From: a virus
DNA: 20,903 bases
Strand: one strand, 5' to 3'
UHGV virus genome: UHGV-0121717
This document shows, in pieces, positions 176 to 20,853 of the stretch (the stretch's first letter is position 1; each line of letters opens with the position of its first letter). The notes beneath the pieces were generated by a model that was not told where the DNA came from, ran no database searches, and saw nothing but the letters and a program-made list of their open reading frames with translations. Both the position numbers and the translations under genes were made by a program.

Positions 176-344
176 CGCCTCCTTCGGCTATCCATTTCAT
201 AACGGCTTTTCTGCTATACCGCGTCGGGTACGTTAAAACTGGCTGAGGGAATCCGTGGTCTTTGCGTAAGCGCCATACTGCTGTTTTTTTCTTTTTGAGC
301 AGGTCGAAAACTTCCTGTTCTTCCATAAAATCAGTAGTAGTCAT
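159..344 (-). CDS. AlpA-family phage regulator / excisionase-like small HTH protein
   Basis: 61 aa starting MTTTDFMEEQ; GAGGA Shine-Dalgarno 5 nt upstream of the ATG at 344. The motif WRLRKDHGFPQPV...RKAVMKWI resembles AlpA/Xis-type winged-helix proteins. The track ORF 159-401 extends to an upstream Met with no ribosome-binding site. Confidence 0.5.
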   Translation of the reverse strand: MTTTDFMEEQEVFDLLKKKKTAVWRLRKDHGFPQPVLTYPTRYSRKAVMKWIAEGGVNRAV

Positions 345-397
345 GATTTTCCTCGTTGTTAAAGTCTTTATTGTCCGCAACTCTATTCTATGGTGAT

Positions 398-637
398 TCA
401 CGCCGCCCGCATCGAGCGCAGCTTCTTAATGTGCTCGCTCTGTTCCAGTTCAGCCCGGATCTGTCGGGCCTCATCATGGTCGAGCGGTTCAAAGTCGTTG
501 TTAAACCTGTACATGCTGGCCGTATTTATCCGTCCCTGGCGCCAGTAGCACACCGTTCTGGCGTCACAGCTGTGAATAATGACTGGCCATCCGTGACCGT
601 CTGGGAAAATCTGGCCTCGCTGAATGAGTTGAAACAC
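398..637 (-). CDS. Hypothetical phage protein
   Basis: 79-codon ORF with a GTG start 3 nt after the TraR stop and AGAGG 6 nt upstream; same strand and tight spacing as the neighbouring operon genes. No recognisable motif. Confidence 0.4.
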   Translation of the reverse strand: MFQLIQRGQIFPDGHGWPVIIHSCDARTVCYWRQGRINTASMYRFNNDFEPLDHDEARQIRAELEQSEHIKKLRSMRAA

Positions 638-640
638 GGC

Positions 641-859
641 TCACCTCTGATGCTTCCCGCGCTTTTCCGCTTCGTCCTGGCAGTCAGCGCAGCGCTGACA
701 ACCTGCCACCAGTTCCCGGCGCCGTGCCGGAATTGCCTCTCCACAATCAATGCAGTGCGTAGCCGATACCGCGTTATGGTTGATGCGATGGGCCTGTATC
801 GCCTTATCGCGGAGAAGCTCTTCTAATTCGCTGGCCTGATCGATAATTTCTGCGCTCAT
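641..859 (-). CDS. TraR/DksA-family C4 zinc-finger protein
   Basis: 72 aa with CIDC-x17-CQRC (two CxxC pairs) in the C-terminal half after an acidic helix; typical prophage TraR. Start overlaps the upstream gene stop (ATGA). Confidence 0.8.
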   Translation of the reverse strand: MSAEIIDQASELEELLRDKAIQAHRINHNAVSATHCIDCGEAIPARRRELVAGCQRCADCQDEAEKRGKHQR

Positions 860-1383
860 GCTGCCTCCATGGTTCCGATCCGCTTTAACTCACTCAGCGA
901 AACGGACGTGATGATGCGTCTTGGCGTGATGAATGGCCGCCAGATGAACAAAATTGAGTCCTTTGGGTTGCTCTGCCGTTTACCTGTAGCCGACGCCGGC
1001 ACAAACTGAATGCGTCCGCCGGTTATCAGGCGAATCTCATCAGCGCTCTGCATCGCGGAGAGAAACCATCCGGTAGAGATATCTGCGGGAAGCAGAATGA
1101 CTACCGTCTGGGACTGCGCTTTACATTGCTCGGTGGCTTTCTCCACCCACGGCCCGATATCGGAATAGGGTGGGTTGCACCAGATCGCGCCGTACGACGA
1201 CCATTCACGACTCAGCGAGTTATCCAGCTCAGTGAGATAGTGAGCGCATAGCGCATTACGTTCAGAGGCAGCAGCATCCAGCCAGAAGCCAAACTCAAGA
1301 TCGAGCGCGTTAAATATTTCAATCGGCGTTTGCCAGTAGTCTCTTTCATTTGTCGGTGTGTTCGATCCGCCGTAGTCAGTCAC
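856..1383 (-). CDS. Phage DNA N6-adenine methyltransferase (phage Dam family)
   Basis: 175 aa containing the WCNPPYS catalytic motif IV and the DYWQTP...LDAAA N-terminal pattern typical of phage Dam methyltransferases. GTG start overlapping the upstream stop. Confidence 0.8.
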   Translation of the reverse strand: MTDYGGSNTPTNERDYWQTPIEIFNALDLEFGFWLDAAASERNALCAHYLTELDNSLSREWSSYGAIWCNPPYSDIGPWVEKATEQCKAQSQTVVILLPADISTGWFLSAMQSADEIRLITGGRIQFVPASATGKRQSNPKDSILFIWRPFITPRRIITSVSLSELKRIGTMEAA

Positions 1384-1814
1384 AATGCCGTCTCCATTTC
1401 GTCGATATAAAGGCCAGCAGCAATCAGCCGGCGGCGCCGGGCTGCTTTCTCAATACATTCCCGGCGATTACCCTCTGCCGCCAGAGCCATAGAACGCCGA
1501 GTGAACAGGCGTGTTTTACCCTGAGGGGTAATAACCTTTGGCTTTGTGATCAGGTCAAAGGTGCGGTCACAGATGCCGTCCTCGTTGAGCCAGGTTTCCG
1601 ATGTAACCAGCTGTGCAATGCGCCCTTCGCCTCTGGTCAGGCCGTTCGCGACACGGTTAAATTCGATGAGCGTTACGCCGAATTTCTCTGCGATTTCGCT
1701 GCCAGTTACCGGGCGACCGCGCGTCTGAATCATCCAGATAACGCGCTCGCGGAGTCCGGAGAATTTCCCGGCCTTACCTGGTCTGCGGTAAAATGGTGTG
1801 CGTTTCATTTCCAC
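1380..1814 (-). CDS. Hypothetical phage protein with predicted winged-helix DNA-binding segment
   Basis: 144 aa; the segment VTGSEIAEKFGVTLIEFNRVANGL looks like an HTH. Translationally coupled to the Dam gene. Function not assignable from sequence. Confidence 0.45.
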   Translation of the reverse strand: MEMKRTPFYRRPGKAGKFSGLRERVIWMIQTRGRPVTGSEIAEKFGVTLIEFNRVANGLTRGEGRIAQLVTSETWLNEDGICDRTFDLITKPKVITPQGKTRLFTRRSMALAAEGNRRECIEKAARRRRLIAAGLYIDEMETAL

Positions 1815-1834
1815 TGCTCCCAGAGTATTTCGGC

Positions 1835-2317
1835 CTATTTGATCATCAGAGACGGCTTGCCGAGCTTTATTTGCGCCCCGGGCACGTCAATACCAGCTTC
1901 GATTTGATGCTTGATAGCCAGTTTGTCTGGTTTGATATTCGTCTCGTACTCGATGAATTCAGGCGGTAATGCGCTGGCGTCAGTAATCTCGACAGATTTA
2001 GAAGGTGCGCGAACCGTTACCTGATGAACTCCGGCTTTAAGTGATTTTTTACCGATGGTTTCCAATGATTTAGCGACATACTCCTTCATGCTTGCCACGC
2101 GGCTTTCGGCGGCTTTTGCACGCTCAGTAAGGCGCTTACTTTCTTCTTTCAGAGCCTCGGCATAAGCAGATTCGTTTTTGCAGACCGCAAGAATCTGCTC
2201 AACCTTTGCTTCCAGCTCCCACTCAATTCCATCAAGAGTGTCGGCTATCATTTCAGGCTCCATGCCGGAGTCAGTCAGCTTGGCGAAATCGTTGGCGATC
2301 TGATAAAGGGCTGTCAT
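1835..2317 (-). CDS. Siphovirus Gp157-like protein
   Basis: 160 aa starting [14 protein letters not shown], with a coiled-coil middle. Resembles the Gp157 family, which as I recall has been linked to phage resistance. GAAGAGG Shine-Dalgarno upstream. Confidence 0.5.
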
Positions 2318-2401
2318 TGGGTAACCTCTTCAAATTTGGCTTTACGCGTTGGCGAATAATCATTTCTGCCGGAAGAATGCCGGGATTGTATGCAAGTCCT
2401 C

Positions 2402-2692
2402 TCATGATTTACTCTCCACGAACTGGTCAACAGCCGTGCTAAGTGATACACCTAAAGTCTCGATATGCTGCTGAATATCCTGTAGTGTCTGCGCCTGAGA
2501 TAACAGGATTTCACGGTTGCATAACTCTTTAACCAGATGCTCAAACTTGCTGTAATAACCGATACGGCTTAGTGTTTCTTTCCCTGCATTCTCACCTTCT
2601 TTGATAATTCCTCTTTCGCTAAGAATCAGATCGTGTTTGGTTCCGGTAATAACGTATTTTCCGAGGTCGATGTTTAGCTTCATTGTTTTCAT
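2402..2692 (-). CDS. Hypothetical small phage protein
   Basis: Start chosen at [11 protein letters not shown] (GAGG 7-8 nt upstream) rather than the track's 2842, which would overlap the upstream gene by about 140 nt. No recognisable motif. Confidence 0.4.
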
Positions 2693-3019: not shown

Positions 3020-3376
3020 TCAGAATGGGATGGAATCGTCGTATACAGGAGTGTTCTGCTGGTTACTACTTTGCTGCTGCGGGCCATTTCCTGAAGCTGC
3101 AAATCCAATCTTTGCATTCAGTAATTCAAGAGTGATTGATTGACCATTTTGCCCCTGATAAACATCAACCCTGATGTTTTCTCCGGTAATTTCCACAATG
3201 CCACCTTCAACAAGAACGCTACGGTAGTAATCCGCTTGCGCTCCCGGCTTGACAAATACAACGGCGCTGTAGTTTGTCCATTCTTTCTTTTTTGTCTGGC
3301 GATCGTAATACTGAACGCCAGCACGGATGTTGAATCCGATATCTCCGCTCTGGTTATCTGCATCATCGTCTGCCTG
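3020..3376 (-). pseudogene. ssb-like single-stranded DNA-binding protein, 3' portion only (5'-truncated)
   Basis: Stop-to-stop frame gives ...GNGPQQQSSNQQNTPVYDDSIPF*, the Gln/Gly-rich linker and acidic IPF tail characteristic of bacterial-type SSB. No ATG in the frame; it is cut near 3340-3376 where Rz homology begins on the other strand. Confidence 0.45.
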
Positions 3377-3757
3377 TCATGGGCGGTTAATCATTACCGT
3401 GATAACGCCATTACCTATAAAGAACAGCGCGATAAGGCCGCATTCATTATCGCTGACATGCAGAAACGTCAACGCAATGTAGCAGAACTCGACGCCAGAT
3501 ATACAAAGGAGCTTGCTGATGCTAACGCGACTATCGAAAGTCTCCGTGCTGATGTTTCTGCTGGGCGTAAGCGCCTGCAAGTCGCCGCCACCTGTGCAAA
3601 GTCAACGACCGGAGCCAGCGGCATGGGCGATGGAGAAAGCCCAGGACTTACAGCAGATGCTGAACTCAATTATTACCGTCTCCGAAGTGGAATCGACAAG
3701 ATAACCGCGCAGGTCAACTACCTGCAGGAGTACATCAGGACGCAGTGCTTAAAATAA
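3140..3757 (+). CDS. Rz: Rz i-spanin homologue; true Rz homology covers 3341-3757, with the native start and first ~7 codons missing
   Basis: [32 protein letters not shown] matches lambda Rz residues 8-39 almost exactly, and the rest aligns to lambda Rz. The only ATG-initiated ORF (3140) begins 67 codons upstream in sequence antisense to the ssb-like fragment. Confidence 0.75.
3513..3704 (+). CDS. Rz1: Rz1 o-spanin lipoprotein, embedded in the +1 frame of Rz
   Basis: 63-aa ORF wholly inside Rz in another frame; signal peptide ending in the lipobox VSAC followed by a proline-rich stretch ([14 protein letters not shown]), as in lambda Rz1. Confidence 0.7.
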
Positions 3758-3823: not shown

Positions 3824-4173
3824 GTACAGGTATTTCACCGCGCACCGCAGCGCACTCAACCACGTCGAACCAAACCCTTTGGAATGAGCCTTTGAGTAGT
3901 CAGTTAGTGCTGGTGAGCCTTGACGGGCTGATCTCCTATGCAGCAAAGGTTCATCTCAAAGTAAGACGAACGCTATGACAAACCAAGATTCTATAGACCT
4001 ATCTGATCTTCGTGGAATGGTCATTTTTCCAGACAAAAGGTAATCACCATAGTCGTATGGCTATGAATCTTGTTGCTGCAGATAAGCATTTTGTGATTGA
4101 AGTGGTCAAATCTCTCAAATGCAGTAAAATGCAGTGCGCTATAATTCAATAACGGAGGGAGTAAGGAGAAGTC

Positions 4174-4794
4174 ATGAAAGATCAAGATGTTAGGTTCGCG
4201 GTGCATCATACGCTTTTGAAAGAATCGCATTTAGATCCAGACTGCCTTGTGGTCGATGAATTTTCCATATCCCTTGGCGCCAGTAGAGCAGACATTGCTG
4301 TAATAAATGGTGTTATACACGGGTACGAACTCAAAAGTGAATATGACTCTTTGGAGCGTTTGCCTCTTCAAATCAAGCATTATTCTTCTGTAATGGACAA
4401 GGTTACTCTTGTCGTAGCTGAGAAACATCTTGAGGGAGCATTAAAGTTAATCCCAGGTTGGTGGGGCGTTAAAACGGTTTCTGTTGGGCCAAAAGGCGCC
4501 ATTCTTATAAAGCACATGCGTGGAGAAAAGCTTAATCGAAACCATGACACATTGATGCTCGCTCAATTGCTTTGGAAAGATGAATGTATCGACGTACTTG
4601 AACGATGGGGCTATTCCAAAGGAATCAAAAGCAAGCCCCGATTTGAGTTATGGAATATTATTGCGGAAAATATTCCAATAGCGAATCTCAGGCTTGAAGT
4701 CAGAACAGCCTTAAAGAAACGCGTAGGCTGGAAAGTTAAGGCTTGGCAGGCTGAGTCTGCGCCAACCAATAAAGCTGTCTCACGACTAACGTAA
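4174..4794 (+). CDS. PD-(D/E)xK nuclease-like protein, uncharacterised; first gene of the moron cassette
   Basis: 206 aa; AGGAG Shine-Dalgarno 5 nt upstream. Motif E29 ... D40 (RADIAVI) ... E52-L-K54 (GYELKS) has the spacing of a PD-(D/E)xK active site. AT-rich relative to the flanking phage genes. Confidence 0.65.
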   Translation: MKDQDVRFAVHHTLLKESHLDPDCLVVDEFSISLGASRADIAVINGVIHGYELKSEYDSLERLPLQIKHYSSVMDKVTLVVAEKHLEGALKLIPGWWGVKTVSVGPKGAILIKHMRGEKLNRNHDTLMLAQLLWKDECIDVLERWGYSKGIKSKPRFELWNIIAENIPIANLRLEVRTALKKRVGWKVKAWQAESAPTNKAVSRLT

Positions 4795-5803
4795 TATGGT
4801 GCGTATGTGCAACTTTACGCCATTCTTTAGAGCCGCCAGATTTGTTAGCGCCTAATGATCTTTGGTAAATGTAATCATCCCCCCAACTAAATTTGGAACC
4901 AAAGACTTGATACTCTGGCGAACTAACAAGGGTAGTACATAAGTTTTTAGTTTGGCCCCATCCATTTCCTTTAACTGCGGTACCTTTTACAAAGATCCAT
5001 GAGGTATCGTTCGAATATCTCACTGAGACATACTGAGACATGAAGCGTGGGTCTACGCTCGTAATGGTAGAGCTAGCGGTGGGATAATCACTAAAACTTG
5101 GCGTTCTTCCATTGCTAAAATTCTGTACTACGTACATCCAAAGATCGTATTCATGGCGCGGAATATGATGAACTTGATGTTGCGGTATCCCTGCCTGTGA
5201 TGCTGGGTATGCGGTTGAAGATAAAATCAAGTTTCTCCACGGAGCTTGGCCTGATAATGTGTTGACCATGCTTAATGCTTGTTGTTTTAAACTATCAGTT
5301 GCGTTTTGAATATCTCCAAAATCAATGATTACATCAATTAAACTAGGATGAATATTTAAGTGGTTAACCAGACTTGTGAATTGGTGCCATGTCTGGGGGG
5401 TGATAGATATAGCGAGCCCATTGATTAAGTTGCGTTGAACAGCATGTATATAGTTTGTTGAATATGCGGGAGAAACAACAGGGATAATTTCCTTACCATT
5501 TACTCTAGCATCTTGGATACACATATCTAGAGGATGATGGCGGCTCGAACCATGTTTATCTAAATATTTAACATCCAGCAAAACAGGACGATTGGTTTTC
5601 CAGGATGCCGCAAGGTTAATACCGAAGTCAGATAAGTAAGAACTCAAACTCTTCTTGTAGCATTCGTTTTCATAATCCCAGTCTATGTCTGGAATGGTAA
5701 TGATCGGAGTAAAACCAGAGAGCGTAGTTTGATCTAAAAGCATCAGAGATTCATATTCAGCAGGCTTCCATTTCAGCTGTGGATAATATTGATGTTGACT
5801 CAT
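4736..5803 (-). CDS. Uncharacterised 355-aa protein, convergent partner of the PD-(D/E)xK-like gene
   Basis: AAGGAG Shine-Dalgarno 4 nt upstream of the ATG at 5803; 3' end overlaps the partner by 59 nt. Contains His clusters (HQVHHIPRH, HTHH) but no P-loop or other motif I can assign. AT-rich. Confidence 0.65.
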   Translation of the reverse strand: MSQHQYYPQLKWKPAEYESLMLLDQTTLSGFTPIITIPDIDWDYENECYKKSLSSYLSDFGINLAASWKTNRPVLLDVKYLDKHGSSRHHPLDMCIQDARVNGKEIIPVVSPAYSTNYIHAVQRNLINGLAISITPQTWHQFTSLVNHLNIHPSLIDVIIDFGDIQNATDSLKQQALSMVNTLSGQAPWRNLILSSTAYPASQAGIPQHQVHHIPRHEYDLWMYVVQNFSNGRTPSFSDYPTASSTITSVDPRFMSQYVSVRYSNDTSWIFVKGTAVKGNGWGQTKNLCTTLVSSPEYQVFGSKFSWGDDYIYQRSLGANKSGGSKEWRKVAHTHHITLVVRQLYWLAQTQPAKP

Positions 5804-6011
5804 TAAAACTCCTTAAAATCTTTACTTATCCTAAGTATAGTGTTATGGCGTAACGCCAATTGTTTTTATACACTTGAAAACATTAGGAAAAGTTGAGCTA
5901 TATCTAAATTTACAAAATTGGATGTTATAGAAATCGAGGTTTCAACTAGGCATGGAACTGCAAAATTTTTAATGCCTGCACGCGAAAGTCGTTGGCGGGT
6001 CCTTTCCGGTG

Positions 6012-6190
6012 ATCCAGACCGTTACGGGGCGGCGACCTCGCGGTTTTTCACTATTTATGAAAATTTTTCAGGGAAAATCATGTCGGTACTTATCGAATAT
6101 AACTTTTTGTTTTTTTTAATATTGCATCCGTAAAGGTCCGACATGAAAGTGTCCGAAAATGCCTTTTTCTGGCGTTTTCATGTCGGGCCT
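6012..6190 (+). other. cos DNA-packaging site (cosQ-side sequence, cosN, cosB with three R-like repeats)
   Basis: GGTGATCCAGACCGTTACG then GGGCGGCGACCTCGCGGTTTTTCACTATTTATGAAAATTTT (6027-6067) is near-identical to the lambda right-end/left-end junction as I recall it. Downstream copies of TCATGTCGG at 6078-6086 (+), 6138-6146 (inverted) and 6178-6186 (+), with an AT-rich spacer, mirror the lambda R3-I1-R2-R1 layout. Confidence 0.8.
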
Positions 6191-6214
6191 TGTATTTGAT
6201 AATGGGTTGTTTTC

Positions 6215-6763
6215 ATGAAGGTTAATAAAAAGAGGCTTGCCGAAATTTTCAACGTGGACCCGCGGACGATTGAACGCTGGCAGTCTCAGGGACTCCCTTG
6301 CGCCTCCAAAGGTAGTAAGGGCATTGAATCTGTATTTGATACTGCCATGGCAATTCAGTGGTATGCGCAGAGGGAAACTGATATCGAAAACGAAAAGCTC
6401 CGCAAAGAACTGGACGATTTGCGTGCTGCAGCGGAGTCAGATTTACAACCCGGCACCATTGACTATGAACGCTACCGGCTCACAAAAGCGCAGGCAGATG
6501 CGCAGGAACTGAAAAATGCCCGTGAAGACGGAGTAGTGCTGGAAACTGAACTGTTTACCTTCATTCTGCAACGTGTGGCACAGGAGATTTCGGGGATACT
6601 TGTGCGTGTGCCGTTGACATTACAGCGTAAATATCCGGACATTTCACCATCACACCTTGATGTGGTGAAAACTGAAATCGCGAAAGCCTCCAATGTTTCA
6701 GCTAAGGCCGGTGAAAACGTGGGCGGGTGGATCGATGATTTCAGACGCGCAGAAGGCAGCTAA
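6215..6763 (+). CDS. nu1: Terminase small subunit
   Basis: 182 aa; [12 protein letters not shown]...[10 protein letters not shown]...[27 protein letters not shown] aligns closely with lambda Nu1. Immediately downstream of cosB. Confidence 0.9.
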
Positions 6764-8663
6764 TGCAGCCGGTGCGATAGCAACAGGGCTTTTATCTCTC
6801 ATTATTCCTGTTCCACTGACGACAGTTCAGTGGGCCAATAAACATTATTACCTTCCTAAAGAGTCGTCTTATACCCCGGGGCGGTGGGAAACACTGCCGT
6901 TTCAGGTTGGCATCATGAACTGTATGGGCAACGATTTGATTCGCACTGTTAACCTGATTAAATCTGCCCGTGTTGGTTATACAAAGATGTTGCTGGGAGT
7001 GGAGGCTTATTTTATTGAGCATAAATCACGCAACAGCCTTCTTTTTCAGCCCACGGACTCAGCTGCTGAAGATTTTATGAAATCTCATGTTGAGCCAACG
7101 ATAAGGGAGGTTCCTGCGTTGCTGGAGCTGGCTCCATGGTTCGGAAGAAAACACCGCGATAATACGCTCACCCTGAAGCGTTTTTCCTCCGGTGTGGGTT
7201 TCTGGTGTCTGGGGGGAGCGGCAGCAAAAAACTACCGTGAAAAATCCGTGGATGTGGTCTGTTATGACGAGCTTTCCTCGTTCGAACCGGATGTTGAAAA
7301 AGAGGGTTCGCCAACCCTGCTGGGGGATAAACGTATTGAGGGCTCTGTATGGCCCAAATCCATTCGCGGCTCGACTCCTAAAATCAAAGGCTCCTGCCAG
7401 ATCGAAAAAGCCGCTAACGAGTCGGCACACTTCATGCGTTTTTATGTGCCCTGTCCGCACTGTGGGGAGGAGCAGTATCTGAAATTTGGCGATGAATCCA
7501 CGCCTTTTGGCCTAAAATGGGAGAAGGACAGCCCCGAAAGCGTTTTCTACCTCTGTGAACATCATGGCTGCGTGTTCCATCAGTCTGAGCTTGACCAGAG
7601 CAACGGGCGGTGGATCTGTGAAAACACGGGGATGTGGACCCGTGACGGTCTGACGTTTTTCAGCGCCGCGGATAATGAAATTCCGCCGCCGCGCTCCATC
7701 ACGTTCCATATCTGGACGGCGTACAGTCCGTTCACCACCTGGGTACAGATAGTCTATGACTGGCTGGATGCACTGAAAGATCCCAACGGCCTGAAAACCT
7801 TTGTGAACACCACGCTGGGCGAGACCTGGGAAGAGGCCGTGGGCGAAAAACTCGATCACCAGGTACTGATGGATAAGGTCGTGCATTACACGGCGGCGGT
7901 GCCAGCCCGGGTGGTTTATCTGACGGCGGGCATTGACTCGCAGCGAAACCGTTTTGAGATGTATGTCTGGGGATGGGCACCGGGAGAGGAAGCTTTTCTG
8001 GTGGATAAAATCATCATTATGGGCCGTCCCGATGAGGAAGAGACGCTGTTACGTGTGGATGCGGCGATCAACAAAAAATACTGCCATGCAGACGGAACCG
8101 AAATGACCATTTCCCGTGTCTGCTGGGACACCGGGGGGATCGATGGTGAAATTGTCTATCAGAGGTCAAAAAAACACGGTGTTTTCCGGGTGCTGCCGGT
8201 AAAAGGCGCATCTGTCTATGGCAAGCCGGTGATCACCATGCCGAAAACCCGCAATCAGCGGGGCGTGTATCTGTGTGAAGTGGGGACGGACACCGCAAAA
8301 GAAATTCTCTATGCCCGTATGAAAGCCGATCCCACTCCTGCGGATGAAGCCACGTCGTATGCCATCCGTTTTCCTGATGATCCGGAGATTTTTTCGCAGA
8401 CAGAGGCGCAGCAACTGGTCGCGGAAGAGCTTGTGGAGAAGTGGGAAAAAGGAAAGATGCGTCTGCTGTGGGATAACAAAAAGCGGCGTAACGAAGCGCT
8501 GGACTGCCTGGTGTATGCCTACGCGGCATTACGTGTGTCCGTGCAACGCTGGCAGCTTGATCTGGCTGTACTGGCAAAATCCCGGGAAGAAGAGACGACC
8601 CGGCCAACCCTTAAAGAACTGGCAGCGAAGCTGTCCGGAGGAGTGAATGGTTACAGTCGCTGA
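6735..8663 (+). CDS. A: Terminase large subunit
   Basis: Start taken at MISDAQKA (6735), overlapping the nu1 3' end as in lambda. Long near-colinear identity to lambda gpA ([49 protein letters not shown]). Confidence 0.9.
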
Positions 8664-8853: not shown

Positions 8854-10442
8854 AACGAACGCCTGTCCTGATTGATGTGAACGGCGTTCCGCTTCGTGAG
8901 AGTCTCAGCTACAACGGGGGCGGTGCAGGATTTGGCGGGCAAATGGCGGAGTGGTTGCCACCGGCGCAGAGTGCCGATGCGGCCCTGCTACCCGCGTTGC
9001 GTCTGGGGAATGCCCGGGCAGATGATCTGGTGCGCAATAACGGAATAGCGGCTAATGCGGTGGCTCTGCATAAGGATCACATTGTCGGGCATATGTTTCT
9101 GATCAGCTACCGTCCGAACTGGCGCTGGCTGGGGATGCGGGAGACCGCAGCAAAAAGCTTTGTCGATGAGGTGGAGGCGGCCTGGTCGGAATACGCCGAA
9201 GGGATGTTTGGCGAGATCGACGTGGAAGGAAAACGCACGTTCACGGAATTTATCCGTGAAGGTGTGGGCGTTCATGCGTTTAACGGCGAAATCTTTGTGC
9301 AGCCGGTCTGGGATACGGAAACCACGCAGTTATTCCGTACGCGTTTTAAAGCCGTGAGTCCGAAACGGGTGGACACGCCTGGACACGGTATGGGGAACCG
9401 TTTTCTGCGGGCCGGTGTGGAGGTCGATCGATATGGCCGTGCCGTCGCGTACCATATTTGTGAGGACGATTTTCCGTTCTCTGGTAGTGGACGATGGGAA
9501 CGGATCCCGCGTGAACTTCCCACCGGGCGTCCGGCCATGCTGCATATTTTCGAGCCGGTGGAGGACGGGCAGACCCGTGGGGCTAATCAGTTTTACAGCG
9601 TCATGGAACGGCTGAAGATGCTCGATTCCCTGCAGGCAACACAGCTTCAGTCGGCCATAGTGAAGGCGATGTATGCAGCGACGATTGAAAGTGAACTTGA
9701 TACCGAAAAGGCCTTTGAATATATCGCCGGTGCGCCGCAGGGGCAGAAGGATAATCCGCTTATTAATATTCTGGATAAGTTCTCCACCTGGTATGACACG
9801 AATAGCGTGACGCTGGGCGGTGTCAAAATTCCGCACCTTTTCCCCGGTGATGATCTGAAACTTCAGACCGCGCAGGATTCAGACAATGGATTTTCGGCGC
9901 TTGAACAGGCGCTGCTGCGGTATATCGCCGCCGGTCTTGGCGTTTCCTACGAACAGTTGTCCCGTGATTACTCGAAGGTCAGTTATTCAAGTGCCCGCGC
10001 ATCCGCCAATGAGTCGTGGCGCTATTTTATGGGGCGGCGAAAATTTATTGCGTCCCGGCTGGCCACGCAGATGTTTTCCTGCTGGCTGGAAGAGGCACTT
10101 CTTCGGGGGATTATTCGTCCGCCACGGGCACGTTTTGATTTTTATCAGGCGCGATCAGCCTGGTCACGGGCTGAGTGGATTGGAGCCGGAAGAATGGCCA
10201 TTGACGGGCTCAAGGAGGTTCAGGAATCAGTGATGCGCATTGAGGCCGGACTGAGCACGTATGAGAAAGAGCTGGCGCTGATGGGCGAGGATTATCAGGA
10301 CATTTTCCGCCAGCAGGTCAGGGAATCTGCAGAGCGGGAAAAAGCCGGACTCTCACGTCCGGTGTGGATAGCGCAGGCGTATCAGCAGCAGATAGCGGAG
10401 AGTCGCAGGCCGGAAGAGGAGACAACACCACGTGAGACGTAA
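8850..10442 (+). CDS. B: Portal protein
   Basis: 530 aa with extensive identity to lambda gpB (ARADDLVRNNG, FEPVEDGQTRGANQFYSVMERLKMLD, LLRYIAAGLGVSYEQLSR). ATGA overlap with W. Confidence 0.9.
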   Translation: MKRTPVLIDVNGVPLRESLSYNGGGAGFGGQMAEWLPPAQSADAALLPALRLGNARADDLVRNNGIAANAVALHKDHIVGHMFLISYRPNWRWLGMRETAAKSFVDEVEAAWSEYAEGMFGEIDVEGKRTFTEFIREGVGVHAFNGEIFVQPVWDTETTQLFRTRFKAVSPKRVDTPGHGMGNRFLRAGVEVDRYGRAVAYHICEDDFPFSGSGRWERIPRELPTGRPAMLHIFEPVEDGQTRGANQFYSVMERLKMLDSLQATQLQSAIVKAMYAATIESELDTEKAFEYIAGAPQGQKDNPLINILDKFSTWYDTNSVTLGGVKIPHLFPGDDLKLQTAQDSDNGFSALEQALLRYIAAGLGVSYEQLSRDYSKVSYSSARASANESWRYFMGRRKFIASRLATQMFSCWLEEALLRGIIRPPRARFDFYQARSAWSRAEWIGAGRMAIDGLKEVQESVMRIEAGLSTYEKELALMGEDYQDIFRQQVRESAEREKAGLSRPVWIAQAYQQQIAESRRPEEETTPRET

Positions 10443-11937
10443 TCTTTCACACATTATTGCCGCAGCATTCAATGAACCGCTGCTTCTGGAGCCCGCCTAT
10501 GCGCGGGTTTTCTTTTGCGCGCTCGGGCGCGAGATGGGGGCAGCAAGTCTTTCGGTACCACAACAGCAGGTACAGCTTGATGCTCCCGGAATGCTGGCTG
10601 AAACGGACGAGTACATGGCCGGAGGTAAACGACCGGCCCGTGTTTACCGGGTGGTGAACGGTATTGCGGTACTGCCGGTGAGCGGCACGCTGGTGCACCG
10701 GCTGGGGGGGATGCGGCCATTTTCCGGAATGACTGGCTATGACGGCATTGTCGCCTGTCTTCAGCAGGCAATGGCAGATAGCCAGGTGCGGGGCATACTG
10801 CTGGACATTGACAGTCCGGGCGGGCAGGCCGCCGGCGCGTTTGACTGCGCTGACATGATTTACCGCCTCCGTCAGCAGAAGCCGGTCTGGGCACTGTGCA
10901 ATGACACGGCCTGTTCTGCAGCCATGCTGCTGGCGTCGGCCTGCTCCCGACGGCTGGTTACCCAGACATCCCGTATCGGCTCCATTGGCGTGATGATGAG
11001 CCATGTCAGCTATGCCGGTCATCTGGCGCAGGCCGGTGTGGATATCACGCTGATTTATGCCGGGGCGCACAAGGTGGATGGCAATCAGTTTGAAGCGTTG
11101 CCGGCAGAGGTTCGCCAGGATATGCAGCAGCGGATTGATGCGGCGCACCGGATGTTTGCCGAAAAAGTGGCGATGTATACCGGGTTGTCTGTGGATGCGG
11201 TCACGGGAACAGAGGCCGCCGTTTTTGAAGGTCAGTCCGGCATTGAGGCCGGGCTGGCGGATGAATTAATCAATGCGTCGGATGCCATCAGTGTGATGGC
11301 CACGGCGCTGAACAGTAATGTCAGAGGAGGCACTATGCCGCAATTAACTGCAACGGAAGCCGCCGTGCAGGAGAACCAGCGAGTGATGGGGATCCTGACA
11401 TGCCAGGAAGCGAAAGGACGTGAACAGCTTGCCACGATGCTGGCAGGGCAACAGGGCATGAGCGTTGAACAGGCCCGGGCGATTCTGGCCGCGGCGGCAC
11501 CGCAGCAGCCGGTGGCATCCGCGCAGAGTGAAGCCGATCGCATTATGGCGTGTGAAGAAGCGAACGGTCGTGAACAACTGGCGGCAACGCTGGCGGCGAT
11601 GCCGGAGATGACGGTGGAAAAAGCCCGCCCGATCCTGGCGGCTGCACCACTGGCGGATGCCGGGCCCTCACTTCGTGATCAGATCATGGCCCTGGATGAG
11701 GCAAAAGGGGCAGAAGCGCAGGCTGAAAAACTGGCGGCCTGCCCGGGAATGACCGTGGAGAGCGCCCGGGCTGTGCTGGCTGCGGGATCAGGTAAGGCAG
11801 AACCGGTCTCTGCATCCACAACCGCCCTGTTTGAACATTTCATGGCGAACCATTCACCGGCTGCGGTCCAGGGGGGCGTGTCACAGGCGTCAGAAGACGG
11901 TGATGCGGACGTGAAAATGCTCATGGCCATGCCATGA
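10432..11937 (+). CDS. C: Prohead protease / scaffold (S49 ClpP-like domain plus Nu3-like C-terminal scaffold region)
   Basis: GTG start; AFNEPLLLEPAYARVFFCAL and the GIAVLPVSGTL...MTGYDGI...KPVWAL core match lambda gpC. The C-terminal region carries three tandem copies of a module present once in lambda C. Confidence 0.85.
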   Translation: MRRNLSHIIAAAFNEPLLLEPAYARVFFCALGREMGAASLSVPQQQVQLDAPGMLAETDEYMAGGKRPARVYRVVNGIAVLPVSGTLVHRLGGMRPFSGMTGYDGIVACLQQAMADSQVRGILLDIDSPGGQAAGAFDCADMIYRLRQQKPVWALCNDTACSAAMLLASACSRRLVTQTSRIGSIGVMMSHVSYAGHLAQAGVDITLIYAGAHKVDGNQFEALPAEVRQDMQQRIDAAHRMFAEKVAMYTGLSVDAVTGTEAAVFEGQSGIEAGLADELINASDAISVMATALNSNVRGGTMPQLTATEAAVQENQRVMGILTCQEAKGREQLATMLAGQQGMSVEQARAILAAAAPQQPVASAQSEADRIMACEEANGREQLAATLAAMPEMTVEKARPILAAAPLADAGPSLRDQIMALDEAKGAEAQAEKLAACPGMTVESARAVLAAGSGKAEPVSASTTALFEHFMANHSPAAVQGGVSQASEDGDADVKMLMAMP

Positions 11938-11973: not shown

Positions 11974-12321
11974 ATGGTGACGAAAACCATCACTGAACAG
12001 CGTGCGGAAGTACGTATTTTTGCCGGTAATGATCCGGCTCACACCGCCACAGGCAGCAGCGGGATTTCCTCGGCAACACCGGCACTGACACCCCTGATGC
12101 TGGATGGGGCCACCGGGAAACTGGTGGTCTGGGACGGACAGAAAGCCGGTAGTGCGGTTGGCATACTGGTACTGCCGCTTGAAGGCACAGAGGCGGTGCT
12201 GACCTATTACAAGTCGGGGACCTTTGCGACGGAGGCAATCCGCTGGCCTGAAAGTGTGGATGAACACAAAAAGGCCAACGCCTTTACCGGCAGTGCCCTG
12301 AGTCACGCGGCGCTGCCGTAA
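11974..12321 (+). CDS. D: Head decoration protein D
   Basis: 115 aa; DPAHTATG...TPLMLD...KLVVWDG...AVGILV...YKSGTF aligns with lambda gpD. Confidence 0.85.
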   Translation: MVTKTITEQRAEVRIFAGNDPAHTATGSSGISSATPALTPLMLDGATGKLVVWDGQKAGSAVGILVLPLEGTEAVLTYYKSGTFATEAIRWPESVDEHKKANAFTGSALSHAALP

Positions 12322-12552: not shown

Positions 12553-13030
12553 CACGGCACCGGAGGCGGTGTACGCCCGTCTTCACGAACAGCTGGGTGA
12601 GGGAACGGTCATCCATATTGTGCCGCGACTGGCCGGGGCCGGAAAGGGTGGACTGCAGATTGTGCTGGGGGCGGCAGCCATCGTGGGCTCTTTCTTCACT
12701 GCCGGGGCATCAATGGCGTTATGGGGTTCAGCCCTGGCAGCCGGTGGTTTTTCTGCCACCACGATGCTGTTTTCACTTGGAGCCAGCATGATTCTGGGCG
12801 GTGTGGCCCAGATGCTGGCCCCGAAGGCAAAAACACCGGATTACCGCGCAACGGATAACGGCAGACAGAACACGTACTTTTCCTCGCTGGATAACATGAT
12901 TGCCCAGGGGAACCCGATGCCGGTGCCTTACGGGGAAATGCTGGTTGGCTCCCGCCGTATATCCCAGGACATCAGCACCCGTGATGAAGGCGGGGGCGGA
13001 AAGGTCGTGGTTATCGGGCGACAGGGATAA
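12497..13030 (+). pseudogene. I: Tail assembly protein I, C-terminal fragment fused out of frame to the E fragment
   Basis: A different frame from E reads ...RYQIRIAGYDTAPEAVYARLHEQLGEGTVIHIVPRLAGAGKGG...GGKVVVIGRQG*, aligning with the C-terminal two-thirds of lambda gpI. An in-frame stop lies at 12494-12496; the only candidate start is GTG 12569. Confidence 0.75.
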
Positions 13031-13270: not shown

Positions 13271-16200
13271 ATGGGCAAAGGTGGCGGCAAGGCGCACACA
13301 CCGCGTGAGGCGAAAGACAATCTCAAATCCACGCAGATGATGAGCGTGATTGATGCGATTGGTGAGGGACCGATAGAAGGCCCGGTGAAAGGCCTGCAGA
13401 GTATTCTGGTGAACAAAACCCCGCTGACGGACACGGACGGTAATCCCGTGATACACGGTGTGACCGCGGTCTGGCGTGCCGGGGAGCAGGAGCAGACACC
13501 ACCGGAAGGCTTTGAGTCCTCCGGCTCTGAAACTGTACTGGGTGTCGAAGTGACCAGGGAAAAACCGGTAACACGCACCATTACGTCAGCGAACATTGAC
13601 CGCCTGCGGGTGACCTTCGGGGTGCAGTCACTGGTGGAGACCACGTCAAAGGGTGACCGTAATCCGTCCTCTGTCCGTCTGCTGATTCAGTTACAGCGTA
13701 ACGGTAACTGGGTGACAGAAAAGGATGTCACCATTAACGGCAAGACCACCTCACAGTTCCTGGCCTCGGTGATTCTGGATAATCTGCCTCCCCGCCCCTT
13801 TAACATCCGGATGGTCAGGGAGACGGCGGACAGCACCACGGACCAGCTGCAGAACAGAACGCTGTGGTCGTCATACACCGAAATCATCGATGTGAAACAG
13901 TGCTACCCGAACACGGCCATTGTGGGGATGCAGGTGGATGCGGAGCAGTTTGGTGGTCAGCAGATGACGGTGAACTACCATATCCGCGGTCGCATCATCC
14001 AGGTGCCGTCAAACTATGACCCGGAAAAACGCACGTACAGTGGTATCTGGGACGGCAGTCTGAAACCGGCATACAGCAACAATCCGGCCTGGTGTCTGTG
14101 GGACATGCTGACTCACCCGCGCTACGGCATGGGAAAACGTCTGGGGGCGGCGGATGTGGACAAGTGGGCGCTGTATGCCATCGGGCAGTACTGCGACCAG
14201 ATGGTGCCGGATGGCTTCGGGGGCACCGAGCCGCGGATGACCTTCAATGCGTACCTGGCACAACAGCGTAAGGCGTGGGATGTTCTCAGTGATTTCTGCT
14301 CGGCGATGCGCTGTATGCCGGTATGGAACGGCCAGATTCTGACGTTTGTTCAGGACCGCCTGTCGGATGTGGTGTGGCCGTACACCAACAGCGATGTGGT
14401 GGTGGATGATAACGGCGTGGGGTTCCGCTACAGCTTCAGTGCCCTGAAGGACCGGCACACGGCGGTGGAGGTGAATTACACCGACCCGCAGAACGGCTGG
14501 CAGACCTCCACGGAACTGGTGGAAGACCCGGAAGCCATACTGCGCTACGGGCGCAATCTGCTGAAGATGGACGCGTTCGGCTGTACCAGCCGCGGTCAGG
14601 CCCACCGTGCCGGGCTGTGGGTGATAAAGACCGGACTGCTGGAAACGCAGACGGTGGATTTCACGCTCGGGTCACAGGGGCTGCGGCACACGCCCGGTGA
14701 CATCATTGAAATCTGTGATAACGACTATGCCGGGACCCTGACCGGCGGACGTATCCTGTCCATTGATGCCGCCAGCCGCACCCTGACACTGGACCGTGAG
14801 GTTACCCTGCCGCAGACCGGTACCGCCACGGTGAACCTGATTAACGGCAGCGGTAAGCCGGTGAGTGTGGACATCACGGCACAACCGGCCCCTGCCCGGA
14901 TACAGGTCAGTGCCCTGCCTGATGGCGTGGCGACATACGGTGTGTGGGGACTCTCCCTGCCGTCACTGCGCCGTCGCCTGTTCCGCTGTGTCGCCATCCG
15001 GGAAAACACGGACGGCACCTTTGCCATCACGGCGGTGCAGCACGTACCGGAAAAAGAAGCCATCGTGGATAACGGGGCCAGCTTTGAGCCGCAGTCAGGC
15101 ACCCTGAACAGCGTTATCCCTCCGGCAGTGCAGCACCTCACGGTGGAGGTGAGTGCCTCAGACGGCCAGTATCTGGCGCAGGCGAAATGGGACACGCCGC
15201 GGGTGGTGAAAGGTGTGAGCTTCAGTCTGCGTCTGACCAGCGGAAGGGGGGATGACAGCCGCCTGGTGACCACCGCCATCACCGCAGACACGGCGCACCG
15301 TTTCAGTGGTCTGCCGCCCGGGGAATACACCCTGACGGTCAGGGCGATTAACAGCTATGGCCAGCAGGGCGAACCTGCCACCACCACGTTCCGGATTGAC
15401 GCCCCGGCAGCGCCTGCCACCATTGAACTGATACCGGGGTATTTTCAGATAACGGCGGTCCCGAAACTGGCTGTATATGACCCGACGGTACAGTTTGAAT
15501 TCTGGTTTTCGGAACAGCAGATTGCGGATATCAGGCAGGTTGAAACCTCCGCCCGCTATCTTGGCACGGCGCTGTACTGGATAGCTGCCAGTATCAATAT
15601 CAAACCGGGCCATGATTATTACTTTTATATCCGCAGTGTGAACACCGTTGGCAAATCGGCATTTGTGGAGGCCGTCGGCCGGGCCAGCGATGATGCCGAA
15701 GGCTACCTGAATTTTTACAAAGGGCTGATTAATAAAACACATCTCGGTAAAGAGCTGCTGGAAAACGCTGAACTGACGGAAGATAACGCCAGCAGACTGG
15801 AGGCGTTTTCGAAAGAGTGGAAAGACGCTAACGATAAATGGAATGCCATGTGGGGCGTCAGAATTGAGCAGACCGAAGACGGTAAGCATTATGTCGCGGG
15901 GCTTGGCCTCAGCATGGAGGACACGGAGGACGGTAAACTGAGCCAGTTTCTGGTTGCCGCTAACCGTATCGCGTTTATTGACCCGGCAAACGGGAATGAA
16001 ACGCCGATGTTTGTGGCGCAGGGCAATCAGATATTCATGAACGACGTGTTCCTGAAATACCTGACGGCTCCCACCATTACCAGCGGCGGTAATCCTCCTG
16101 CATTTTCCCTGACACCGGACGGGCGGCTGACGGCGAAAAATGCTGATATCAGCGGTAACGTGAATGCGAATTCCGGGACGCTCAACAACGTCACGATTAA

Positions 16201-16660
16201 CGAGAACTGTCGGGTTCTGGGAAAACTGTCCGCGAACCAGATTGAAGGCGATCTCGTTAAAACAGTGGGCAAAGCTTTCCCCCGGGACTCCCGTGCACCG
16301 GAGCGGTGGCCATCAGGGACCATTACCGTCATGGTTTATGACGATCAGCCGTTTGACCGGCAGATTGTTATTCCGGCGGTGGCATTCAGTGGCGCTAAGC
16401 ATGAGAGAGAGCATACTGATATTTACTCCTCATGCCGTCTGATAGTGCGGAAAAACGGTGCTGAAATTTATAACCGTACCGCGCTGGATAATACGCTGAT
16501 TTACAGTGGCGTTATTGATATGCCTGCCGGTCACGGTCACATGACACTGGAGTTTTCGGTGTCAGCATGGCTGGTGAATAACTGGTATCCCACAGCAAGT
16601 ATCAGCGATTTGCTGGTTGTGGTGATGAAGAAAGCCACCGCAGGCATCAGTATCAGCTGA
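13271..16660 (+). CDS. J: Host-specificity / central tail fibre protein J
   Basis: 1129 aa, colinear with lambda gpJ with high identity over most of its length ([21 protein letters not shown]...). The last ~130 residues diverge from lambda. Confidence 0.9.
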
Positions 16661-19755: not shown

Positions 19756-20853
19756 TCAAGAGGTCTTATTTCTGCTCCTTTGGAGCTCTTCAAAACGATT
19801 ATGTAAAGATTTCGGATACAGTTCGGTATATACCTGCCATAGCACGTTTAATGAACGATGCCCTGTAACCTGGGCGACTTCCTCAATACTAAAACCAGCC
19901 TCAAATAAGCGACTTGCCCCTTCTCTACGCAAATCATGGTATCGCAGATCTTTAATACCTAATTTGCTTCTTACCCTCTGGAATCCCGCAGTAACAGAAG
20001 TGCTGTTATATGGAAAAATGAATTCTGATTTTTTGGGTTGTCGTTGGACGATATCCCAGGCTTCCCCAAGCAAGGCTACTTTCATATGGTTGCCTTCCTT
20101 TTTACGTGGATCTTTCCTGTCTCTTACGAGTATGGATTTTTGTTCCTGATCGAGATCCTCCCATCGTAATCGGCATACTTCACCGATTCGCATACATGAC
20201 CACACAGAAAATTTGAGGATATCAACGAACGGAATTTTTGAGCATTTATGTGTAGATCGTTGTTGAAGACCTTCAATGAGCATGTCCAGTTCATCAGATG
20301 CCGGTCTACGATTACGACGATTTGATTTACCAATTAAACCAAGTTTAAGTAGATATGGACGAGCGGCTTTTGCTGGGTTTGATGTGTAATTAATTCCATA
20401 TACAGGTTTGGCAGCATCCAGAACACTGCCAAGATAACTAACATCGTGGCTAACTGTAGCTGGACCTGCACCAGCGTTGTTTCTTAGCCTGCAATGTTCA
20501 ATTACGTCATTTTCTGTCAGTTCAGATAGTTTGATCGCGGAGATGTCACTATCCATAAGCAGTTCCAGCACATATCTTTTAGTACGGCCTGCTTTACCTC
20601 CGGCATTTGGGTCATTTAAATATTTGCGTAGTAAGTCACGGACTGTAAGTCCGTCAACTGCATTTGATGATGGAATGCCATATAGATCTAATTCCATCAC
20701 TTTCTGTGTGCCCCATGTTTTGGCATGAGCATGTTTAGGGAATGTTTTGCTTTCCCTGTAAGTGATAACACCTTTTTCTTTGATAATCACATTACAGCGA
20801 TAGCGTGGTGTGCCATCGGATTTTAGTCGTTTCTCTATGTTATAGTACGCCAT
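19756..20853 (-). CDS. int: Tyrosine-type site-specific integrase
   Basis: 365 aa; C-terminal catalytic region ...RIGEVCRLRWEDLD...YHDLRREGASRLFEAGFSIEEVAQVTGHRSLNVLWQVYTEL with the R...HxxR...Y signature. GAGG ribosome-binding site. AT-rich relative to the J/stf module. Confidence 0.85.
   Translation of the reverse strand: MAYYNIEKRLKSDGTPRYRCNVIIKEKGVITYRESKTFPKHAHAKTWGTQKVMELDLYGIPSSNAVDGLTVRDLLRKYLNDPNAGGKAGRTKRYVLELLMDSDISAIKLSELTENDVIEHCRLRNNAGAGPATVSHDVSYLGSVLDAAKPVYGINYTSNPAKAARPYLLKLGLIGKSNRRNRRPASDELDMLIEGLQQRSTHKCSKIPFVDILKFSVWSCMRIGEVCRLRWEDLDQEQKSILVRDRKDPRKKEGNHMKVALLGEAWDIVQRQPKKSEFIFPYNSTSVTAGFQRVRSKLGIKDLRYHDLRREGASRLFEAGFSIEEVAQVTGHRSLNVLWQVYTELYPKSLHNRFEELQRSRNKTS

Follow-up and report, generated by a model that had tools for sequence, protein, structure and literature searches.

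A gop-less pair of beta and cII-like genes in a lambdoid prophage, a probable two-gene anti-phage defence cassette

The gop-beta-cII genes of the satellite P4 protect against lambda and P1 (Rousset et al., 2022, PMC9122126). In the passage of that paper that cites Ghisotti (1990), Gop is toxic without beta and P4 beta neutralises it; furthermore, the phage accessory gene orf184 triggers cell death via gop-beta-cII (Silas et al., bioRxiv 10.1101/2023.04.06.535777). PD-lambda-2 is composed of a HigB-like component A, an Xre-ImmA/IrrE peptidase B, which is toxic and neutralised by A, and a beta-like component C (Vassallo et al., 2022, PMC9519451). The latter is described there as "related to a P4 phage antitoxin" and is needed for defence, not for neutralisation. 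Here, we analyse two convergent, overlapping genes, encoding a nuclease-like protein of 206 amino acids (aa) and a partner of 355 aa, in the virus genome UHGV-0121717, a stretch of 20,903 nucleotides (nt) that is called the window throughout. Both proteins are homologous to P4 proteins (NC_001609), the shorter to cII and the longer to beta.

By analogy with these relatives, the cassette, a two-gene, gop-less member of the beta/cII group, probably serves the lysogen as an expressed anti-phage defence. The two protein families have already been named, while the gop-less two-gene core is a new arrangement. A preliminary description of the locus, based on the letters of the DNA, could not match the pair to any characterised system; the homology to P4 beta and cII supplies that match. 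The anti-phage role that it proposed is still the best reading, with relatives in validated systems and loci both in prophage slots and in defence islands.

The likeness to P4 extends to the layout of the genes. Beta has 355 aa in both elements, with 22% identity over 355 aa (BLASTP, E 3e-7), and the window nuclease aligns with P4 cII at 27% identity (E 9e-19) with the E, D and ExK residues in register. P4 carries, in sequence, gop at 247-648 (+), beta at 651-1718 (+) and cII at 1746-2540 (-), with beta and cII convergent as in the window. Both cassettes lie next to cos on a mobile phage-type element, a satellite in the case of P4 and a lambdoid prophage in the window. The differences are also clear: the sequences are very distant, P4 cII is longer (264 versus 206 aa), and the 3' ends of P4 beta and cII are separated by a 27-nt gap with an annotated terminator, whereas those in the window overlap by 59 nt. 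Moreover, P4 has gop and the window cassette does not, since a tblastn search with P4 Gop finds nothing in the window (the best match, E 0.63, lies elsewhere). As for PD-lambda-2, the window meets it in component C only: neither an open reading frame (ORF) like the HigB-like component A nor one like component B, with its Xre helix-turn-helix (HTH) and ImmA/IrrE (M78) parts, is present in the window, and no minus-strand ORF of at least 40 aa lies between 5804 and 6214, upstream of beta. PD-lambda-2 was published as three genes without a nuclease, whereas the PD-lambda-2-type operons surveyed here, metagenomic and genomic, add a convergent, overlapping cII-like gene.

The 206-aa protein is matched by the NCBIfam model sce7726 (NF033832, E 9.8e-54), by the PADLOC model "cll" (E 1.1e-30) and by phrog_984; the Pfam family PF26915, named Phage_P4_cII, is precomputed on its close relatives, and RefSeq labels the gene "sce7726 family protein". 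The predicted model, with a predicted local distance difference test (pLDDT) score of 90.9, has an alpha-beta-beta-beta-alpha-beta core followed by a helical domain (about residues 126-190) and a disordered end (residues 192-206). The helical domain is possibly a SAP-like DNA-binding domain, judging from the model. The PD-(D/E)xK arrangement proposed earlier, E29, D40 and E52-x-K54, was correctly placed: the fold is found in the model, and the four residues are invariant in 73 nuclease relatives. Together with Q66 and Y70, they are kept in at least 95% of 79 sequences whose identity to the window nuclease ranges from 24 to 85%, P4 cII included; Q66xxxY70 is the RecB-type motif. According to the model, the protein is a RecB-like PD-(D/E)xK nuclease with an intact catalytic motif, a predicted metal-dependent DNA endonuclease. 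A sequence search against solved structures detected no similarity for it. The same core and the E...D...ExK and QxxxY residues are found in RecB-like/MmcB-like PD-(D/E)xK nucleases (SPO1766, PDB 3dnx; the nuclease domains of Can2 and NucS), from which the window nuclease differs in its additional C-terminal helical domain and in its obligatory partnership with the beta barrel. In the phage collection, 241 Staphylococcus and 35 Bacillus records hold relatives of the nuclease domain on its own (residues ~3-145, 26-30% identity), and no beta match was found in those phages; among the matches listed, the Bacillus and Lactobacillus records are mostly genomes of 130-235 kb.

The 355-aa partner, previously regarded as unassignable, is a full-length match to Pfam Beta_protein (PF14350, E 3.7e-56). 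The PADLOC models for PD-Lambda-2_C match it (PDLC03984, E 4.1e-32; PDLC03983, E 2.2e-25) more strongly than PADLOC "beta" does (E 3.6e-10); phrog_9159 also matches, and the RefSeq label is "beta family protein". No NCBIfam model matched diverse beta proteins, and the idea that an "sce7725" model covers beta could not be confirmed. The family is large, with 3757 clusters at 50% identity (E <=1e-3), and the best 150 matches are nearly all single-domain proteins of about 360 aa. In the predicted model (pLDDT 92.1), beta is a single-domain (beta/alpha)8 TIM barrel. Residues Y6, P8, E16, P33, D77, P108, D161, P200, R216, D239, Y263, G323, W328 and H336 are kept family-wide, and several of them, including acidic ones, lie at the C-terminal ends of the modelled barrel strands, as expected for a putative active site. 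A sequence search of the PDB with beta found nothing.

That the two genes form a unit, as had been supposed from their convergence and overlap, is borne out by a survey in which one genome per species was scanned with the nuclease motifs. The 80 loci returned span Gamma-, Alpha- and Betaproteobacteria, Myxococcota, Firmicutes, Bifidobacterium, Elusimicrobiota, Dehalococcoidia, bacteria of the Candidate Phyla Radiation (CPR) and one archaeon. In 78 of them beta lies immediately downstream of the nuclease gene and convergent with it; of the two exceptions, one is at a contig end and one has another gene in the place of beta. The single complete locus without beta is that of Xenorhabdus koppenhoeferi (L048:5567-6000), where the sequence VHRDLKPANIL, the catalytic-loop motif of Hanks-type Ser/Thr protein kinases, is encoded on the same strand downstream of the nuclease gene. 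The pair is also present on 40 IMG/VR viral contigs, and in all informative IMG/VR loci found via beta the nuclease gene is convergent and adjoining. It is found as well in P4, in Escherichia phage Rac-SA53 (annotated "CII phage-like" and "beta"), in the Gordonia phages DumpsterDude and Powerball and in Mycobacterium phage Mycofy1.

The overlap itself is a conserved feature. The 3' ends overlap in 76 of the 78 paired loci (median 44 nt), in the same relative frame in 71 of these 76, and the 59 nt of the window fit that frame. The codons of two invariant residues, W186 of the nuclease and H336 of beta, are exactly 30 nt apart in 57 of 69 loci, while in the window subfamily this distance is 69 nt, a 13-codon expansion. 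Given the convergent arrangement in loci of so many phyla and the frequency with which the ends overlap, the overlap is not due to chance. Neither a conserved hairpin nor a terminator was found at the junction. Over 74 loci, its folding did not exceed that of the remaining gene sequence (mean z +0.14 and +0.39), so that transcription from either side has to continue into the opposite gene.

The two-gene-only architecture is the commonest, being found in about two thirds of the loci (~50/78) and in several phyla. As a possible third component, the short ORFs that precede the nuclease gene in the window and 13 other loci were considered and discarded as spurious, since they are not homologous among themselves; upstream ORFs in ten further loci gave no recurrent family. 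On the other side of the cassette, a gene of about 420 codons encoding an HTH and a Peptidase_M78 domain lies directly upstream of beta in 26 of the 78 loci, and these genes match PADLOC PD-Lambda-2_B (E 1e-82 to 7e-140). Three independent lineages, sampled via the B protein, have a HigB_toxin gene (PF09907), the M78 peptidase gene, Beta_protein and then a convergent, overlapping Phage_P4_cII gene; they adjoin type I or type ISP restriction-modification genes, DpnII or PLD-like genes. The B component family itself exceeds 4300 proteins (E <=1e-10), with an unusually high identity of 55-60% across phyla. The locus of E. coli 2014C-3075 (L151:2873-5970), which adjoins a relaxase gene on a mobilisable element, encodes a GNAT acetyltransferase, an ImmA/IrrE peptidase of the short kind (282 aa) and beta; a convergent sce7726 gene comes next, with an overlap of 18 nt. 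In E. coli strain C (NZ_CP029371.1, L150:3573-7784), where the operon encodes HigB, ImmA/IrrE and beta, the convergent neighbour, 79 nt from the beta stop and without overlap, is a SIR2-family gene; this could be an effector swap or a mere neighbour in a defence island. The variation of the upstream toxin-like genes (Gop; HigB with Xre-M78; GNAT with M78) fits a conserved core with add-ons.

Compared with two-gene relatives of 77-85% protein identity, both window genes have a ratio of nonsynonymous to synonymous substitution rates (dN/dS) of ~0.04-0.06, with dS near saturation. A promoter-like block upstream of the nuclease gene is kept in relatives whose proteins are merely 77-85% identical, and blocks upstream of beta, including the -10-like GTATAAAA, are also kept, this conservation being partial. 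The low dN/dS and the conserved upstream blocks with their -10-like hexamers indicate, at the level of sequence, purifying selection and a two-gene form that is maintained and not decaying. The features of the cassette are collected in Table 1.

Table 1. Coordinates of the beta/cII cassette and of the block that carries it, in positions of the window.
Feature	Position	Strand or length	Remarks
sce7726 / Phage_P4_cII family nuclease gene	4174..4794	+	ORF, 206 aa, ATG start
beta family gene	4736..5803	-	ORF, 355 aa, ATG start
Antiparallel 3' overlap	4736..4794	59 nt	nuclease residues 188-206 / beta residues 337-355
AT-rich inserted block (moron) with the cassette	3979..5988	boundaries approximate	flank matches and G+C 0.402
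Upstream region of the nuclease gene	4090..4173	+	promoter-like block and Shine-Dalgarno; signals predicted only
Upstream region of beta	5804..5988	-	Shine-Dalgarno and partly conserved block; signals predicted only

The factual properties of the cassette that had been noted earlier all stood up to closer analysis, among them the convergence with its 59-nt overlap, the strong ribosome-binding sites, the low G+C content and the position between Rz and cos. Each gene is preceded by AAGGAG 5 nt ahead of its ATG, at 4163-4168 for the nuclease gene (ATG at 4174) and as the reverse complement of 5809-5814 for beta (ATG at 5803). Upstream of the nuclease gene, a promoter scan gave a candidate promoter, TGGTCA-16-TAAAAT, at 4103-4130, and, within the conserved block, TATAAT at 4140-4145. 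In the same region, the direct repeat AATGCAGT occurs twice with a spacing of 10 nt (~4118-4137), overlaps the -10-like hexamers and is kept in relatives; from its sequence, it could be an operator. Upstream of beta lies a perfect 15-bp palindrome, TTGGCGTAACGCCAA (5845-5859), followed by a T-run and terminator-like on the plus strand; it was dropped as a candidate operator because relatives of the cassette do not conserve it. The fold of the beta leader RNA is unremarkable (z -0.3), and an Rfam scan of the window gave no match. The G+C content of the two genes is 0.413 (0.36-0.40 at third codon positions, GC3) against 0.50 in the left and 0.54 in the right flank; the small terminase gene nu1 has 0.495 and the large terminase gene 0.526, with a GC3 of 0.50-0.58 in the terminase genes.

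The cassette lies between Rz (3140-3757, Pfam Phage_lysis) on the left and the genes of the small (6215-6763) and large (6693-8663) terminase subunits on the right. In a search of the phage collection, 3760-3978 matches P22-like phages (87% to the rha region of BTP1), phage 21 aligns with 5989-6214 through its cos/nu1 region (96%), and the interior between these flanks has no match. A block of about 2 kb has therefore been inserted, in agreement with the moron slot assigned to it; flanking repeats or insertion scars were sought, and only short repeats at chance level were found. From its gene content, the host element looks like a defective prophage related to phage 21 and lambda. An S49 protease gene (10432-11937) and a decoration protein gene (11974-12321) are followed by the start of the major capsid gene only, where the match to the prophage of E. 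coli WS3294A runs to 12507, the end of that sequence, and then by a lambda gpI-like ORF (12569-13030) and J (13271-16660); most of the head and tail genes have thus seemingly been deleted. An integrase gene occupies 19756-20853 (-). The WS3294A prophage is otherwise near-identical to the window, with an alignment that starts only at 3348, and its small and large terminase genes are separated by an IS66-family element, ISCro1, that is missing from the window. On the evidence of these sequences, the prophages are mosaic around the cassette.

In lambda, rexAB is located downstream of cI, and bor and other morons lie between Rz and cos. The beta/cII pair uses the same kinds of slots: it is found between Rz and cos in the window, and in Acinetobacter and Pasteurella prophages and in one Oceanospirillaceae locus it lies directly downstream of, and co-oriented with, a cI-like HTH/S24 repressor gene. 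The window cassette is, like the lambdoid exclusion cassettes, AT-rich and has promoter-like regions of its own, whereas its proteins show no sequence or fold relation to RexA, RexB or Bor, so the likeness is positional only. Further contexts include the early region of Rac-SA53, where the pair adjoins hok, a primase/AlpA satellite-like island in Enterobacteriaceae, the interval between the lysis genes and the integrase/immunity region in Gordonia phages, and chromosomal defence islands. Within E. coli, 127 of 5426 complete genomes (2.3%) carry the cassette, always at 99% identity or more, which implies a recent spread.

In the favoured reading, that of a lysogen-expressed defence, both genes would be transcribed from their own promoters in the lysogen. 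Beta, as an enzyme-like barrel, would sense or relay a phage cue and control the effector, a sensing or controlling part being suggested by the fact that beta works with different toxins in P4 and in PD-lambda-2. The nuclease would be the sole candidate effector here, since there is neither a Gop nor a peptidase toxin, and it would cut phage DNA, host DNA or both; the outcome would be superinfection exclusion or abortive infection. This specific division of labour is put forward tentatively, and its details may well turn out differently. In addition, the terminator-less overlap would give the two messenger RNAs complementary ends, and either antisense pairing or transcriptional interference might thus couple the genes. 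Because the nuclease gene has the orientation of the late operon and beta the opposite one, late read-through on induction would favour the nuclease.

Several points weigh against the defence reading or its details. The known toxic parts of the published systems are Gop and PD-lambda-2B, not a cII-like nuclease, and SIR2 stands in the place of the nuclease in the PD-lambda-2-like locus of one E. coli strain. For PD-lambda-2, the published table gives 229385-232009 and an outer range of 228989-232396, which ends 396 nt past the stop of component C (PMC9519451). If this outer range is read as the cloned fragment, any convergent gene past C would be truncated there and the clone still defends; the nuclease may consequently be dispensable in that context, which is the main caveat. 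Furthermore, the promoters and the antisense coupling are predictions, the beta barrel is an "orphan" with no specific structural relative, and a literature search returned, beyond the three defence papers cited above, nothing relevant to the two-gene form or to how beta and cII work.

The natural beta knock-outs of E. coli bear on two of the rival explanations. Beta is interrupted in several genomes, twice by the insertion sequence IS1 at different sites and once by IS5; moreover, in one locus (H111) RefSeq splits the beta annotation in two and the match exceeds the query by one base, a difference read as a frameshift, and in another (H147) the match breaks off inside beta. In all three beta-disrupted loci that were fetched, the protein accession of the nuclease is unchanged from that of intact loci. 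None of the five events seen affected the nuclease gene, a bias to beta that is not significant (~0.1 by length alone, by our own estimate). To judge from these genomes, the nuclease is tolerated without beta at its native expression, whatever the level, and this speaks against a pair of either the simple toxin-antitoxin or the classical restriction-modification kind. A toxin-antitoxin or addiction module, with the nuclease as toxin, beta as antidote and the prophage stabilised by post-segregational killing, would find a precedent in P4, where beta neutralises Gop according to the cited passage of PMC9122126, in the relation of component C to a P4 antitoxin (PMC9519451), and in the carriage of the pair by mobile elements. 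It is nevertheless unlikely: apart from the loss of beta beside an intact nuclease, the genes are convergent in the window and in 78/78 paired loci rather than arranged as a co-directional, autoregulated operon, beta keeps enzyme-like residues, and PD-lambda-2C is not needed to neutralise the toxin of its own system (PMC9519451). A restriction-modification-like pair, in which the TIM barrel would modify DNA or a nucleotide as barrels of the TGT/DpdA type do and the nuclease would cut unmodified DNA, is highly improbable. The presumed modifier has been lost from several strains that keep an intact nuclease, which would be lethal for a classical pair, and no substrate-supply genes are linked. 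In structure comparisons the beta barrel resembles TGT/DpdA no better than many unrelated barrels, and a Pfam scan finds no methyltransferase domain in the cassette.

The cassette might instead act in the life cycle of the element itself, for example by controlling lysogeny or by processing DNA in the lytic phase. A clear-plaque phenotype gave P4 cII its name, and some database names read "regulatory protein"; the nuclease has a possible DNA-binding C-terminal domain, its gene is co-oriented with the late operon, from which read-through would be expected to raise the nuclease and oppose beta, and lone relatives of its nuclease domain are found in virulent Staphylococcus and Bacillus phages. 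We consider this unlikely, however, given that the pair also occurs outside phages (in defence islands by restriction-modification genes, in CPR bacteria and in an archaeon), that phages sharing the flanks do without the cassette, which is accordingly not needed for the phage cycle, that it is intact in a defective prophage, and that its relatives have measured anti-phage phenotypes (PMC9122126, PMC9519451). Finally, the pair could be an inert remnant, a core left inactive by the loss of its killing parts (Gop, HigB/Xre-peptidase or GNAT); all experimentally active relatives have an extra toxin-like gene, and the window prophage is itself defective. Such decay is quite improbable for a form that is the commonest one, in ~50/78 loci and several phyla, that is under strong purifying selection with all catalytic residues kept, that has conserved upstream regions and strong ribosome-binding sites on both genes, and that has recently spread at >=99% identity to 127/5426 E. 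coli genomes.

It is conceivable, though we would not count on it, that the beta/cII pair is the ancient, self-sufficient core of a defence superfamily comprising stand-alone, Gop-beta-cII, PD-lambda-2-type and GNAT/M78 forms, in which a hitherto uncharacterised TIM-barrel enzyme would license a RecB-like nuclease, the antisense 3' overlap, of fixed geometry from Proteobacteria to CPR bacteria and an archaeon, would work as an expression switch and the toxin-like genes would be later add-ons. At the scale of E. coli, the cassette is carried unflagged as a defence candidate by 2.3% of complete genomes, and the survey suggests that PD-lambda-2-type operons normally possess a fourth, convergent nuclease gene, regularly seen outside E. 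coli (26 loci), that is absent from the published description and from the detection models. The 3' overlap, frame-locked across the family, is an unusual and testable regulatory feature. As it holds only the two parts common to the Gop-beta-cII and PD-lambda-2-type operons, the cassette would be a natural minimal version of these systems, and the 2-kb fragment 3979-5988 is suited to asking whether the nuclease does the killing and which cue or reaction beta is concerned with.

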